A stretch of 57,699 nt of DNA from assembly GCA_963630775.1 (NCBI GenBank), contig CAVGNU010000006.1, positions 1-57,699 on the forward strand. Reading direction: 5' to 3'. The position numbers are program-made. The stretch comes from Bacteroides fragilis (lineage in GTDB: Bacteria > Pseudomonadota > Alphaproteobacteria > Rs-D84). Positions 48,001 through 57,000 of the stretch are shown in pieces; position 1 is the first letter of the stretch, and each line of letters starts with the position of its first letter.

Positions 48001-51000
48001 AACGTATAATTCATGGTGGTTTTTTATCAGACCGTCGCACACAAATTATGTCGGGCGTCGGTATATTGTCAGCGGTCGCCGCATACTTGGTTGGCGACAG
48101 CGATATATTCATATTACTGCAAACGATATTTACGCTTGGCGGAATTTATTTTATGCGCAAGCAACCAAACACAACCAAAGGAAAATGATAATGGAACACA
48201 TTCCTGAAAAATTTCAAAACACAGATGGAACATTAAACGCGGATGCGCTGATAAAATCATACACTGAATTGGAACGCAAGATTGGTACAATGGTGTCTGT
48301 GCCAACCGCGGACAGTGATGATGCCACGCGCGCCCGATTCAATCGTGCGATTGGTGTACCCGCCACGCCCGATGAATATCCAACAAATGATTTATTTGGT
48401 GATGCAGATTTGCAGAAAAAATTTTTAGAAATTGGATTGACGTCATCACAGGTGGAGCAAATTTATCACATCGCAGATGAATTTTTATCGCCTGTACTAT
48501 CAGATTTATTTGTTGTGCAAAAAACAGAACTTGCTTTTGCAGAATTGCAAAAATTTTTTGGTGGTGTGGACAAAATGCACGATGCAATAAAACAAATAAA
48601 TGATTTCGGTACGCGATTTTTGCCCGCCGATGCGTTTGATGAATTATGCTCGTCACCCCAGGGAATCCAAGGTGTGTACAGAATGATGCAATCCATTGAA
48701 CCGAACGTTGAAATTGCAAATGATGATAATAAAAATTTATCTGATTCTGATTTACGACGCATGATGCGTGATCCAAAATATTGGCGTGATCATGATGCGG
48801 AATATGTTCGCAAAATAGAAAATGGTTTCAAAAAATTGTATTCATAATGAAAAAAGTTCACTTTCTTCTTTACTAATATTTTAGTTTGATATAAAATATA
48901 AAGTAAGAACAAAAAAATTTGTTCTATCCAAAAACAAATATAAAAGGAGAGAAGAATGGCATTCGCATTCTTGAAACCAGCGGCAAAGAAAGTTGCTGTT
49001 AAAAAACCAGCGGCAAAAAAAGTTGTTGCTAAAAAGCCAGCAGCAAAAAAAGTTTGTGCTAAAAAACCAGTGGCAAAGAAACCAGTTGCCAAGAAAGTCG
49101 CAGTAAAAAAGCCGGTTGCTAAAAAAGCCCCAGCGAAAAAAATTGCTGTGAAAAAGCCAGTTGCCAAAAAAGCACCTGCAAAGAAAAAATAATACATTTC
49201 CCCACCATTTGGTGGGGTTTTTAATTGCATGAAAAATTTCAGTCGTATCATAATTGGTGCGACTGAAACTTTTTGTCGGATAATTCTGGTGCAATACCCA
49301 GAACCCATTTTGTTCGCATCATGCGGCGCGACATAATCGCACAACCGTTTGATTCGTATTTGTCGGACGTAATTCATTGCGTCTTTTTTTTATTTTAATC
49401 AAAAGGAATTTTTATGTCTGTTTCAATCGATAATGTTTTTATCAAACAATTCGAAGCCGACGTTCATTTGGCGTACCAGCAAATGGGTACTAAATTACGC
49501 GGCACGGTGCGCAGTAAATCTGGTGTTATCGGCGCATCAACAACATTTCAAAAGGTTGGCCGTGGCACGGCTGCAACAAAATCACGTCATGGTATTGTAC
49601 CGGTTATGAATCTGAATCATGAACCGGTTGAATGTGTATTACAAGATTACTATGCCGGCGATTGGGTTGATGCATTGGACGAATTGAAAACCAACATTGA
49701 TGAACGTCGTGTTGTTGCCAGTGCCGGTGCATACGCGTTGGGGCGCAAGACCGATGAACTGATTGTGAATGCAATGGCGGGCGCAACCACATCTGTAGGT
49801 GATTATTCAGCGGGCCTGTCCAAAGATTTAATCTTGTCTGCGGTCGAAGAATTGAACAAGAAAGATATTCCCGATGACGGTCGTCGTTTCGCGGTTGTCG
49901 GTGTGCACCAGTGGAAAGAATTACTGGGTATCACAGAATTTGTTTCTGCGGACTTTGTGGGCAATGACCTGCCGTTGATTTCGGGTGGAGCGTCCAAGAA
50001 ATGGTTGGGTATCACATGGGTACTGTATAACGCATTACCATTGACCGATACCACAAAGCGCGATTGCTTTATCTATCATGCGACCAGTATTGGTCATGCC
50101 TGTGGCCAAGAGGTCAAGACCGACATTTCATGGCACGGTGAACGCGCCGCGCACTTTATCAGCAACAGCATGTCCCAAGGGGCGGTTCTGATTGATGGTG
50201 ACGGCATCGTGCGCATGAAATGCAAAGACGCCGACGGCGAATAACCCCCCAGTTCCACATAAACATAACCAAAGGGAAAAATAAATGGCTTTTCAGAATA
50301 AAAATTTGTCTGTGATTGCGTATGCAAATGGGTTTACATTGTGGCACTATGCCGAAAACGTAACGATGGCAACAATTACGGCCAGCGGGTATTTCAACGA
50401 TGTTAAAACATTGATGAACACCGGCGACATTGTGATTATCAATGCGTCTGATAATACATCGCTGAAAAAGGTTGCCGTTGCATCTGGTAATGTTACAACC
50501 GCCGCATTGGCGTAATCGCATATAAATTTTATTGTGTGTTGGGTCGGCATGATGTATGTCGACCCCGTTTTTATTTATAAAGCAGGGGGATATTATATCA
50601 TGCTGACCAAAATAGATTTATGTTCAATGGCATTACTGAAATTGGGTGAAAAGCCAATTCAGTCGTTGTTGGACGATACGGCTGCCGCACAACTGGCGCG
50701 CACATTGTTTGATCCGTTGACCGATGCGCTGATTGCGGTGCATCCATGGCGATTTGCAACCAAGCAGTTTGAACTGGCTAAAAACGCAGATGGTGATTTT
50801 TTAATTCCATCGGAATGCCTGCGTGTGACGCATACAGGCGGCAATATCATTATCGGAAATCGCATCACCGCCATATAATGAATTTCTTGGTGGGGGTTTT
50901 AATGCGTCCACCACATCGCGGATTGCTGATGGCGTTTCGTCATTCGGGTAAATCAACGGTTGTCGGAATTTTTGCCGCATGTGTGCTGTGCATGCACCCC

Positions 51001-54000: not shown

Positions 54001-57000
54001 ACCCTTGTACTGTTCATTGGCGCGACCCGATAAAATAGCATTTGCGGCATTAAACGCAATATTCATCGCCAGCGTTGTTTTCCCCATCGCTGGACGCCCC
54101 GCGATAATAATCAAATCACTGTGGTGCAGACCGCTGATGGATTTATCCAGCGCGTTCAAACCCGTTGTTAAACCAGACAATTTTCCGTCGGCCTTGTATG
54201 CGACCTCGGCCTCTCTCAGTGCGCCCGCCAATGCGGTTGCGATTGGTGCAACCTCGCGTCGGGTTTCGCCCGCCGATGCCAAGTTGAATAATTTCTGTTC
54301 GGCAACCTCTATCTGGGTGGTGACAGGGTTATCCAAATCCTCGACAAATGCGTTATCGGTAATTGATTGGCCCAGTTCAATCAGTTCGCGACGCAATGCG
54401 TTGTCATAGACGATGCGCGCATATTGTTCGACATTTACAACCGTCGCGCCCGCGCCCGCCAATTGGGTCAGGTAATCAACCCCACCAACGGATTCCAGCA
54501 CGCCCTGTTGATCCAGATAATTTTTCGCGGTGATGATATCAAACGGGATGCCGGCGGCAAATTGACGTTCTGCCAACTTGTAAATTTCTTGGTGCGCAGG
54601 GTGCGAAAAATGTTCCGCTTTCAAGAAATCAGAAATGCGTTCCAACGCGCGGTTATTCATCAGCACCGCGGCCAAGACGGCCTGTTCGGCCTCCAAATTT
54701 GTCGGTAAAGTTTTAGGGGTAAAATCCATGTCTGATATAGTATCTAAAAATTTTGGTTTTTCAACGCCTTTTTTGCGCGGGTACAACGTATTGAAAATAC
54801 CAATAATTGATGCAACGGGTGCGTCTGCGTGGCCCGAATTATTCCCGCCCGCGCGCATTGCCGAATTACGCGATGCGGTCGGCCCACGTCATTTCGCATC
54901 CCAGATGTTATTACAGCCCGTCGCGCCGACGCGTGCACGCCTTGACCTTGGGGCATTGCAATTATACGACGATACGTTTGACGCGCGCACCGCGCAAATC
55001 GGCGCGCATAAAATTACAGGCGCGGCGGCATATTGGGATCCGTCCAGTGGACGTCGTGGCCGCGATGGCAGTGTGTGCGTAATCCTATATCGTGACGATG
55101 CATCACGTTGCATTTTTATTCACGATATTTTGTACATGACAGTGTCCGATGGCGACACGCATCCATTGGCGCACCAGTGCGACTGTGTACTGGAATTTTT
55201 GTCGCGATATAACATGCGTCGCATCACAATTGAAACAAATGGCATCGGAAATGCATTGCCAGAAATAATGCGCGACGCGGCAACCCGTGCCGGCATACCA
55301 ATCACAATCACGCGGATTACAAACAATCGGCCAAAGGTTGACAGAATCTTGGACGCAATAGAGCCGACATTGGCCGCTGGGCGATTGTATGCGCACCGCA
55401 AAATAACACAAACACCGTTTGTTGCTGAAATGATGGGTTGGTCACCGATTGGTACGGGCCACGACGATGGATTGGACGCGGTGGCGGGCGCAATTACAAT
55501 CGCACCAACCCCCGTGCGCCCCACGGGTCATGCACCCCGCGCATACACAGCAAACACGAATTTCAAGGTTTAACAAAACAAAGGAGCAAACATGCAAAAT
55601 AACTTGGAACAAATGTATCGGCGTGCACTGGACGTGCGTGCACCGTGGTTGGCACGATGGGACGCCGCAATGCGTTACACTATGCCGACATCGGACGCGG
55701 ACGCCGCAACACTGTTTGATGCAACCGCCGCCGATGCGGTGGACAATTTGGCGGCATCAATTTATTCATTGATGACACCACCAGAATCACTGTGGCTGAC
55801 ACTGATTCCGGAAAGTGACGCATCGCCCGATGCAGACGCTGCAACGGCGGCATTGCGTGCGAATCTGAACGATTCTAATTTCTATACCACAATTCACCAG
55901 TGCTATCTGGATTTGGTGATTCTGGGCACGGCATGCCTATTTATGTCAGAAACGCCAATCGGCGCATCATCGGCATTTTTGTTTACGGCCGTGCCAATGC
56001 GCGATATTGCGATTTTGCCAAACGCGGTATTTCATACCGCCACAATGCCAGCACGCGAAGTGTTGGAAAAATACCCAACATGGACACCGCCCGCCGACAT
56101 TGCCGACCAGATAAAGCGTGACCCCGCCGCGCCATTGCGGTTGGTGCAATCATTGGTTGGTACGGATTTTACTGCATGGTTGGATGTTGGCGGCGACATT
56201 GAAAATAATATCGTTGCGCGTGGCACATTTGAAACCAATCCATACATCATTTTCCGGTGGAGTGTGCTGAGTGGTGAACAATACGGCCGCGGGCCCGTCC
56301 TGCGCGCATTGCCAGATATCAAGACCGCGAACAAGGTTGTTGAATTGGTCTTGAAAAACGCGACTATCGCCGTTTCCGGCATATGGCAGGCCGACGATGA
56401 CGGTGTCATAAATCTGAACAACATCAATTTGACCCCTGGGGCAATTATACCAAAGGCCGTCGGGTCATCAGGTCTGACCCCACTGTCATCGGGCGCGGAT
56501 TTTGACGTGTCGCAAATAATATTAAAAGACCTGCGCGAACGGATTCGCCATGCGTTGTTGGCCGACCGGTTGGGGTTGCTGTCTGAAAAAGAAATGACCG
56601 CGACCGAAATTATGGCGCGCAATTCCGATATGATGCGAATCTTGGGCGCGACATATGGGCGACTGCTGCACGAATTTATTCGACCACTGACCGACCGCGG
56701 ATTACAGATTCTGTCCCGTCGCGGGGTGATTACGCCGATTGTACTGAACAGTGATGCAGAACTGAAATACATTGCGCCGATTGCCCAAATGGCGGTGGCG
56801 GAAAACCTGATTTAACCATGGGGGAAAATGATGAACGAAATTGAACAAAACTATGCCCGCACATTTGCAACCACGGCGGGTGTGGCGGTACTGCAACATC
56901 TGCGCCGGATGACGATTGAACGCGTGCTGGGGCCGAATGCCACGGACGCCGAATTGCGCGGTCTGGAATCCCAGCGTGCATTGGTGCACATGATTGAAAA

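Follow-up and report, generated by a model that had tools for sequence, protein, structure and literature searches.

Why should the gene for a phage packaging enzyme enclose the replicative helicase operon of the cell that carries it, and is any of that phage DNA still in use? The question arises from a contig of 57,699 nucleotides (CAVGNU010000006.1, assembly GCA_963630775.1), deposited under the name Bacteroides fragilis and placed by GTDB in the alphaproteobacterial lineage Rs-D84; the whole of this stretch is called the window here. On its plus strand the gene for a T7-type large terminase (terL) lies in two pieces, terL-N and terL-C, and between them are three tightly packed minus-strand genes encoding the helicase DnaB, a regulator with two helix-turn-helix (HTH) domains and a 226-aa protein, p226. 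An earlier note on the window, whose description of these three open reading frames (ORFs) agrees with ours, proposed either that the cell's helicase now resides inside a dead prophage gene or that the three genes are the regulation and replication module of a satellite-like element nested in the packaging gene. Our analysis points instead to a domesticated T7-type module resembling gene transfer agents (GTAs), whose terminase would work as two polypeptides, and we consider this explanation rather probable.

Both pieces were recognized as parts of one terminase. TerL-N scored 207 bits against the NCBIfam model NF033889 (termin_lrg_T7, cutoff 150), covering model positions 32-190 of 500, and aligned at 41% identity with residues 52-211 of the TerL of a Ghunavirus. 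The ATPase motifs that the earlier note had placed at 50878-51402, i.e. Walker A (FRHSGKST), Walker B (LIICDDVE) and the coupling motif or C-motif (IGTPH), were all present, and the Walker A, Walker B (ADLIICDDVEVPN) and coupling motifs were invariant in 112 TerL-N sequences. TerL-C was above the Pfam cutoffs for Terminase_6C and Terminase-T7_RNaseH-like and covered positions 231-500 of the termin_lrg_T7 model; scored alone it reached 108 bits, under the whole-protein cutoff of 150. It contained the nuclease motifs YWDPS, ETNGIG and HDDGLDA, and its acidic residues D104, E169, D246, D247 and D250 were invariant in the alignment. Joined into one query, the pieces retrieved intact terminases of 460-500 aa at 42-48% identity over 93-100% of the length; both thus align with one continuous TerL, a comparison that the earlier note had proposed. 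As encoded, however, the terminase is not a single polypeptide, since the window and no fewer than 146 related assemblies have two ORFs for it, 3.3 kb from each other.

The break between the pieces is clean, with zero TerL residues missing or duplicated. The intact homologue P0007 reads ...IYIGTPHTFETIYDTSG immediately before the break and FLKGFRQLKIPLLD after it (over a longer stretch, ...GGTHIYIGTPHTFETIYDTSG continuing into FLKGFRQLKIPLLD). In the window the N piece ends with ...TIYRTSDGD and a stop codon (at greater length, ...TGTMIYIGTPHTTDTIYRTSDGD and the stop), and the C piece starts with the leader MSDIVSKNFGFSTP followed by FLRGYNVLKIPIID, so the only extra residues are three on the N piece and the 14 of the leader. 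The homology of TerL-C begins at 54770 (FLRGY), behind a translated leader of 14 codons that starts at the ATG at 54728, and not at about 54.79 kb as previously put forward. In the AlphaFold (AF2) model of P0007 (pLDDT 88), whose best PDB match was the terminase of the T7-like phage PhiV-1 (E=3e-30), the break falls between residues 201 and 202, in a coil (189-206) after motif III that leads from the strand of motif III (178-188) into the core strand after it (207-211). A single strand of the ATPase sheet is thus left to the C piece, along with the lid helices and the nuclease. At one locus, L009, the terL-C gene (8228-9436, protein P0002) encodes 402 aa and contains an in-frame internal duplication of ~120 residues (SHITGSVLYWDPS...AIEPVL twice), which may be real or an assembly artefact.

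The split layout was widespread. Relatives were scanned at one genome per GTDB species; 381 were found and the best 80 (58-98% identical) examined. All 80 of these best of 381 species representatives had the split wherever the contig extended far enough, as did 64 IMG/VR contigs, down to 50% TerL-C identity, and two further metagenome contigs, which brings the total to at least 146 independent related assemblies. These included large assemblies (OZ007020.1, of 958,618 bp and circular according to the record title, and a 1.03-Mb contig of L002), and misassembly was ruled out by the recurrence in 146 assemblies. In a protein search, many proteins of ~262-284 aa matched the C half only, at 60-98% identity. 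The 80 representatives are all gut metagenome-assembled genomes (MAGs) labelled Candidatus Enterousia, "uncultured Rickettsiales" or Alphaproteobacteria; Enterousia is assigned to the uncultured order Rs-D84 and has genomes of ~0.75-1.0 Mb, mostly <1 Mb (PMC12306168). The window, too, comes from this group of gut Alphaproteobacteria. The earlier note had named beforehand, as evidence that would speak against its view, a terminase encoded by two genes flanking a similar module in relatives. This is what we found, in chromosomal elements and not in free phages.

Gene order and location were also conserved. On contigs of the L002 type, an order shared by L009, the left part runs lipB, endolysin, a small ORF, scaffold, a lysine-rich protein, capsid, p76, adaptor, nozzle, p115 and terL-N; the right part continues with p226, the HTH regulator and dnaB (all on the minus strand), then terL-C, portal, Bbp19 and p86. 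The locus is fixed between lipB on the left and a small lipoprotein gene on the right, the former appearing in 21 rows of our flank table (20 loci and the window) and the latter in 36. A one-off insertion does not agree with this synteny comparison, in which the same layout occupies the same locus across the clade. The region has also been deposited by provirus callers as "viral contigs" of ~10-12 kb (IMG/VR loci L093-L155 and L164), most of which begin at the capsid gene and take in the cellular dnaB operon.

Outside this group the terminase gene was contiguous. Unsplit relatives were at most 48% identical in the protein search and at most 43% among viral contigs, and the next IMG/VR relatives had the order portal-Bbp19-scaffold-capsid-...-TerL without dnaB, the HTH gene or p226. 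Intact T7-like elements of Alphaproteobacteria (L006; L008 from Roseococcus; L156-L172) have counterparts of the portal, Bbp19, scaffold, capsid, adaptor, nozzle and TerL proteins of the split module, the identity of TerL being 34-48%, but have a contiguous terL of 460-500 aa and lack the three cassette genes. In L006 and L008 the same order was followed by the endolysin, and both carried a full-length pectate-lyase fibre and a putative small terminase (TerS). Two IMG/VR loci from rumen and gut samples, L163 and L172, contained ~10-kb clusters of portal, scaffold, capsid, adaptor, nozzle, a ~100-aa gene, a 96-aa gene and an intact TerL of 469-487 aa. They lacked a fibre gene, came from the same sample series as split elements, and may represent a sister, unsplit, reduced element.

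What separates the two terminase pieces is a set of cellular genes. DnaB was full length, with both Pfam domains (DnaB and DnaB_C), and scored 605.9 bits against the replicative-helicase equivalog NF006606 (cutoff 540) and 508.2 bits against TIGR00665 (cutoff 385.25); against the phage_DnaB model TIGR03600 it reached 408.1 bits, under the cutoff of 498.65. Judged by these family models dnaB is of the cellular type, and it was present in every locus that reaches its position. A motif search of the window found none of rplI, rpsR, rpsF, alr and radA, the canonical neighbours of dnaB. From its presence at these loci, a dN/dS of 0.02-0.11 and genomes of ~0.9 Mb we infer, indirectly, that this dnaB is probably the only copy in the genome and essential.

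The dual-HTH nature of the regulator, given in the earlier note, agrees with its Pfam matches (HTH_3 twice, and HTH_31). The label "LexA-like" was not borne out by sequence-level tests, since no Pfam match to Peptidase_S24 was obtained and a profile of the C-terminal domain found no LexA or CI chain in the PDB; the candidate catalytic serine also varies among orthologues (PNSK, PNPK, PNTK, PNAK). For p226, no match was found in Pfam, NCBIfam, PHROG or PADLOC, and its all-alpha AF2 model (pLDDT 72.5) had no fold match in the PDB (best E=2.2). The p226 family is narrow, with 56 clusters in an exhaustive profile search of 1.84 billion representatives, and its distant members carried no informative domain. 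In outgroups these members always followed a dual-HTH gene encoding 332-353 aa, in plainly chromosomal surroundings, e.g. with yidC upstream or with lolCDE or bamA/lpx genes downstream, and neither dnaB nor phage genes were found within reach. From these contexts HTH-p226 appears to be an old cellular gene pair. In the Enterousia clade the pair is downstream of dnaB, and all three genes are inside terL. On family assignments and gene neighbourhoods, the cassette is thus shown to be cellular DNA.

The stop codons of terL-N and p226 overlap in a CTAG at 51399-51402, as the earlier note had observed and as we read from the sequence, and the start codons of dnaB and terL-C overlap in a CATG at 54727-54730. 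The reported absence of a transposase, an integrase or repeats at the junctions was confirmed with Pfam, NCBIfam, PHROG and a junction scan, in which no direct or inverted repeat and no target-site duplication was found beyond chance-level short matches. A permissive Rfam scan of 47000-57699 returned no intron, and PADLOC returned no defence-system match. Split inteins consist of fragments of about 100 and 35 residues or, in atypical cases, at least ~25 and ~100; at the break here the N piece carries no more than 0-6 additional residues and the C piece 14, and we found no split intein. Beyond ...DTIY(R/K)T, the N pieces of different lineages run on for 0-6 residues that vary and are mostly acidic, and a conserved recombination or splice core is therefore lacking.

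The 14-residue leader of TerL-C coincides with the predicted dnaB promoter. A promoter-like sequence, TTGAAA-16-TACTAT, was found on the minus strand at 54764-54737, with the -10 box ending 7 nt before the dnaB ATG, from which the mRNA is predicted to be, and probably is, leaderless. This pattern scan, together with an alignment of 82 loci in which the promoter block (AAAAAAGGCGTTGAAAAA...TATACTAT) was almost invariant, supports an earlier remark that the cassette brings only a minimal promoter for dnaB, and the overlap with the leader extends it. Read in reverse complement, the block encodes the TerL-C leader, F-S-T-P-F-L over the -35 box and I-V over the -10 box, and the leader pattern M..NF.FSTPFL was conserved among TerL-C proteins. 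Synonymous codon entropy fell to 0.24 bits over terL-C codons 1-15, against a gene mean of 1.33, and no comparable dip was seen at the 5' end of dnaB (1.10 vs 1.26). Five lineages, among 45 of the 82 aligned loci, had a ~20-nt spacer with a Shine-Dalgarno sequence for dnaB and kept a separate terL-C ATG (MVYENF.FSTPFL), which shows the leader to be translated. The alignment thus shows dual coding of predicted promoter and leader, and suggests that the inserted DNA brought the dnaB promoter with it and that the new terL-C start was overprinted on this promoter.

Are the phage genes around the cassette relics? Pairwise dN/dS values (Nei-Gojobori, NG86) for several close pairs of loci were about 0.01-0.3 for nearly all module genes: 0.05-0.16 for terL-N, 0.06-0.16 for terL-C, 0.05-0.14 for the nozzle and 0.03-0.11 for the portal, beside 0.02-0.11 for dnaB and 0.03-0.09 for the HTH regulator. 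Nine close pairs were compared for the capsid gene: eight gave 0.01-0.06, and one, whose members are nearly identical, gave 0.28. Nearly every gene was a single full-length match across loci, and median identity to the reference locus L010 was highest for capsid (86%) and portal (84%), followed by DnaB and HTH (both 83%), TerL-N (74%), p226 (67%) and TerL-C (61%), the capsid evolving more slowly than DnaB. Pairwise distances correlated with those of DnaB plus HTH for portal (r=0.77), capsid (r=0.73) and TerL-C (r=0.82), and DnaB against HTH gave r=0.82. Purifying selection acts on terL-N, on terL-C and on the genes for head, portal and tail, and the pattern fits a domesticated, vertically inherited module and not a decaying prophage. 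Of the earlier proposal of a helicase inside a dead prophage gene, the location and the cellular dnaB (NF006606) therefore stand, whereas "dead" does not hold at the level of the clade: in at least 140 lineages no damage is seen in the terL halves or in the genes for head, portal and tail, and the catalytic motifs are invariant.

In the strain of the window, however, the module is visibly damaged. Complete versions comprise the endolysin, p63, scaffold, a histone-H1-like HC2 protein, capsid, p76, adaptor, nozzle, p115, the two terL pieces, portal, Bbp19 and p86, and ~49 of 82 loci also have a 184-aa fibre stub (p184) whose homologue in intact relatives is the N-terminal anchor of a 675-aa pectate-lyase fibre. 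A stretch of 2,960 bp (2.96 kb; counterpart in L010, 3174-6133) is missing from the window when it is compared with its closest relatives, L010-L012 (~89-95% nucleotide identity) and L093 (98-98.6%), the last of which still holds the deleted region. The deletion lies between two 12-bp direct repeats (CGCATCACCGCC), of which one copy remains, and removed the C-terminal half of the adaptor (tubeA), the nozzle (tubeB), p115, p184 and codons 1-41 of terL-N. The apparent terL start at 50878, the position from which the earlier note counts the N piece, is a product of this deletion, whose strain-specific junction spans 50861-50878. Its ATG overlaps the stop of the adaptor fragment (TAATG), and the remnant could, from its sequence, be translated from there. 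All other module genes are intact in the window, which indicates a recent loss, and the copy in this strain is probably defective. Independent, larger losses were found in L064 and L080.

The module thus has several features of GTAs. No integrase and no replication or lysogeny genes of its own were found in complete versions, the only replication gene being the cellular-type dnaB; gene order and flanks are the same, with co-divergence, in at least 80 species; and the structural genes are under purifying selection. By analogy, its reduction resembles that of GTAs, and a domesticated GTA-like particle system is its most likely function. Particle production, DNA packaging and association of the two TerL chains are what we infer from these features.

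We propose that, in the common ancestor of the clade, 3.3 kb of ordinary chromosomal DNA carrying the dnaB promoter, dnaB, the dual-HTH regulator and its partner p226 entered the terL gene of a resident T7-type prophage-derived module. It would have landed in the permissive loop that joins the beta-strand of motif III to the core beta-strand after it, and this single ancient insertion would have been fixed and then inherited vertically at one locus between lipB and the small lipoprotein gene, genome streamlining afterwards removing all spacer DNA. TerL-N and TerL-C would be made separately and reassemble non-covalently by fragment complementation, with the lid, the nuclease and the beta-strand that TerL-N lacks supplied by the C piece. 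What had been the dnaB promoter region would have been overprinted as the 14-residue leader, leaving the start codons shared back to back, and selection would have continued on a particle-forming module with a two-chain terminase. As to the route, the gene order of intact prophages also differs in the positions of the portal-Bbp19 block and the endolysin, and no simple single-event scenario could be derived.

Several observations weigh against this proposal. No counterpart was recognized in the module for the receptor-binding part of the fibre, for the putative small terminase (a ~100-aa gene upstream of intact terL) or for the internal core proteins, and a complete DNA-delivery machine is not evident. 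The 5' part of dnaB shows no conserved plus-strand promoter from which terL-C and portal could be transcribed. The evolutionary rate of TerL-C is about double that of DnaB plus HTH, and partial loss in three lineages (the window, L064 and L080) shows the module to be dispensable for viability. Finally, the cut passes through the RecA-like core, where complementation between fragments can be called plausible and no more.

The main rival, unlikely in our view, is that the module is selected for another cellular role without DNA transfer, e.g. that of capsid-like shells, or of the ATPase and nuclease pieces by themselves; the two TerL fragments would then not have to cooperate in a packaging motor. 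Purifying selection shows that genes are used and not for what, and this rival would account for the unrecognized TerS, core or ejection proteins and receptor-binding fibre domain, and for the loss of tail genes in three lineages with head genes left intact in the window. It is harder pressed to explain why portal, scaffold, capsid, adaptor, nozzle, endolysin and both terminase activities were retained together with invariant catalytic residues, a set that matches the needs of a DNA-packaging particle. The retained genes could also be a frozen accident, a decaying prophage remnant with non-functional terL relics kept only by the essential dnaB operon within it; we consider this improbable. The 2.96-kb deletion of the window and the larger ones in L064 and L080 are the kind of decay it predicts, and the dnaB promoter accounts for part of the conservation at the 5' end of terL-C. 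Linkage to an essential gene, however, gives neighbouring genes no shield from frameshifts or non-synonymous drift, yet more than 140 lineages, to 50-60% TerL-C identity, keep full-length ORFs with low dN/dS, invariant active-site motifs and a capsid slower than DnaB, in strongly reduced genomes (~0.9 Mb) that should have shed useless DNA.

A seamless break would also be expected if terL were made whole again by programmed DNA excision, RNA splicing or split-intein protein trans-splicing, and a split terL healed by group I introns is known from jumbo gut phages (PMC12880540). We regard reconstitution as very improbable, because no intron family was matched, the junctions lack direct and inverted repeats and a nearby recombinase, the N-piece tails vary in length and sequence, and the extra residues are too few for a split intein, the leader being explained by the dnaB promoter. 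The cassette consists of opposite-strand coding sequence right up to the junctions, and its excision would take dnaB off the chromosome. Least probable of all is the nested satellite-like element or active phage, with the three genes as its regulation and replication module. A repressor-like HTH protein beside DnaB does look superficially like a phage early region, but this DnaB passes the cellular equivalog and fails phage_DnaB, and HTH-p226 is an ordinary chromosomal pair in outgroups, free of dnaB and phage genes. Mobility genes, att-like or junction repeats and defence-family matches were all absent, and the cassette co-diverges with its flanks at a fixed locus.

A bolder version of the proposal, which we think quite unlikely, is that Enterousia/Rs-D84 harbours an unrecognized T7-derived GTA-like system in which the nesting of the dnaB operon is functional, as a switch between growth and particles, with an obligate two-chain terminase. 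Late particle transcription would run antisense through p226, HTH and dnaB to reach terL-C and portal, and dnaB-operon transcription would run antisense into terL-N, so that a cell expressing the helicase (growth) could not at the same time produce particles (terminal commitment), and the regulator of this switch would be the embedded dual-HTH protein. The features of the window on which the foregoing rests are collected in Table 1.

Table 1. Module genes, cassette genes and other features of the window, by position.
Feature	Position	Strand	Basis
Endolysin-like cell-wall hydrolase	47592..47981	+	Pfam Hydrolase_2; PHROG endolysin; same position in relatives
p63, small hydrophobic protein	47997..48188	+	ORF; conserved in 66 loci
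T7-type scaffolding (capsid assembly) protein	48185..48847	+	Pfam Phage_T7_Capsid; dN/dS 0.05-0.20
Lysine-rich histone-H1-like (HC2) protein, inside head module	48956..49192	+	ORF; L010 orthologue matches Pfam HC2
Major capsid protein	49414..50244	+	Pfam Phage_capsid_2, E=1e-68; median 86% identity across clade
p76, conserved small structural-module protein	50285..50515	+	PHROG 18004; 76 loci
Truncated adaptor / tail tubular protein A (gp11-like), N-terminal half only	50534..50878	+	Pfam Tube; 54% of 187-aa L010 orthologue
Deletion junction, 12-bp repeat CGCATCACCGCC	50861..50872		blastn against L010, L011, L012; both repeat copies inspected
terL-N, ATPase N part of T7-type large terminase, lacking first 41 codons	50878..51402	+	termin_lrg_T7; Terminase_6N
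p226, conserved all-alpha protein, function unassigned by any family	51399..52079	-	ORF; partner gene of HTH regulator
Regulator (335 aa), two XRE-type HTH domains and 150-aa C-terminal domain	52101..53108	-	Pfam HTH_3 x2, HTH_31
dnaB, cellular-type (alphaproteobacterial) replicative DNA helicase	53179..54729	-	NF006606; TIGR00665; Pfam DnaB, DnaB_C
dnaB-operon sigma-70-like promoter (predicted), within terL-C leader codons	54737..54764	-	Pattern scan; 82-locus alignment
terL-C, 14-codon leader, last core beta-strand and ATPase lid, RNase-H-like nuclease	54728..55573	+	Terminase_6C; Terminase-T7_RNaseH-like
Portal (head-to-tail connector) protein	55592..56815	+	Pfam Head-tail_con, E=2e-82; median 84% identity; dN/dS 0.03-0.11
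Bbp19-like small phage protein	56828..57025	+	L010 orthologue matches Pfam Phage_Bbp19; likewise annotated in relatives
p86, small membrane protein, final module gene	57022..57282	+	ORF; weak PHROG matches; 81 loci

Among the smaller genes, p63 had no family match in the PHROG scan and may function in lysis, and p86 may be a holin. The HC2-like protein, with AKKPAAKK repeats, was found in 74 loci (62 at >=85% coverage), between the scaffold and capsid genes in those relatives whose contigs span the region; its size was 78 aa in the window and 119 aa in L010 (1137-1496), and it could be a DNA-condensing particle component.

The endolysin-like gene is the first of the phage-derived module and comes immediately after lipB; to its left is ordinary bacterial chromosome, with genes for LpxI, porins, a tRNA methyltransferase and lipB. 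At the right boundary a strong bidirectional terminator hairpin (11 pairs, 57281-57306) stands between p86 and a convergent small lipoprotein gene (57310-57552). The block of a trmA-like gene, two porins and LpxI (41752-45026), left of lipB in the window, was found to the right of p86 and inverted in L002 (12559-15846) and L017, which indicates a local rearrangement around the segment of lipB and the module. Several lineages also had extra cellular-type genes between the terL-C stop and the portal start, e.g. an ORF of 345 aa resembling an outer membrane protein (OMP) or lipoprotein in L012 (10852-11889), and a 285-aa ORF with a 162-aa lipoprotein in L101 (8731-10360). Judged by spacing, insertions are also present there in L032, L044, L045, L055 and L118. 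This junction appears to be a recurrent site of cargo insertion, and from the repeated cargo it follows that illegitimate insertion into the cluster is not exceptional in the group.

How does the module compare with known systems? GTAs of the RcGTA type are known in Alphaproteobacteria, including reduced endosymbionts (PMC9254644), and FpGTA of Faecalibacterium, a podovirus-like GTA-like element, is the only such one reported from the gut (PMC12946183). Like these GTAs or viriforms, the module described here is a head-tail-terminase-lysis cluster of phage origin that is fixed in the chromosome, is passed on vertically, is maintained by purifying selection, has shed integration and replication genes and occurs even in very small genomes. 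Unlike RcGTA, which is of the HK97/RcGTA type, its genes are of the T7/Autographiviridae type (T7 scaffold, Phage_capsid_2, Head-tail_con, adaptor, nozzle). It differs from GTAs in general by a terminase in two pieces around a cellular operon and the lack of a recognized small terminase. The run-off-replication/GTA system of Bartonella was considered as a precedent and rejected as lambda-like and unrelated. None of the alphaproteobacterial GTAs in the papers retrieved is T7-type, these being RcGTA-like or, in Bartonella, lambda-like.

Genes in pieces are known as well. Friedrich et al. reportedly described in 2007 that nrdA of Aeromonas phage Aeh1 is split by a free-standing homing endonuclease gene, mobE, and that its two polypeptides reassemble into active enzyme. 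There as here an enzyme gene is split by inserted DNA and its halves are separately translated, presumably reassembling non-covalently. Here, however, the insert is 3.3 kb of opposite-strand housekeeping genes and not a selfish homing endonuclease gene, and the split is in a cellular chromosome, within a RecA-like core, ancient and clade-wide. The terL gene itself is a known hot spot of interruption whose fragments can still give a working enzyme, as with the split intein of AceL-TerL. In Jug jumbo phages terL is interrupted by group I introns (PMC12880540). In contrast to such intron or intein interruptions, we found no intron family, only 3 and 14 extra residues, and intervening DNA full of antisense cellular genes.

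The skin element in sigK of Bacillus subtilis and the nifD element of Anabaena are gene-splitting elements that are excised in development, and they share with the present case a multi-kb interruption that is stably inherited in the split state. They are set apart from it by their excision, as the locus studied here has no recombinase, no conserved junction repeats and junctions that vary among lineages, and excision would delete dnaB. Full-text literature searches found neither phage-like genes nor GTAs nor split terminases described for Enterousia or Rs-D84, and the only split-terL cases found were the intron-healed ones of jumbo phages (PMC12880540), consistent with a remark in the earlier note that no precedent had been described. 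The combination of features is unprecedented; the kinds to which they belong, i.e. domesticated phage-like particle systems and genes in pieces, are already known.

Few families of domesticated gene-transfer particles are known. An active module would enlarge them by a T7-type (podovirus) lineage, and would place such a system in widespread, uncultured human and animal gut bacteria with genomes <1 Mb. The keeping of ~12 kb of phage genes in genomes of this size demands explanation. The two-chain terminase, if true, would be to our knowledge the first natural large terminase of two polypeptides split inside the ATPase core, and would offer a ready test of how far a packaging motor tolerates fragmentation. 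For annotation, provirus callers report the region as viral (64 IMG/VR entries), which results in systematic false calls of a prophage carrying dnaB and in annotation errors for the split terL. For the organism, a presumably essential cellular operon has been captured in a phage gene and has, on the present reading of the alignments, co-evolved with it to a shared start codon and a predicted promoter overprinted as coding sequence.

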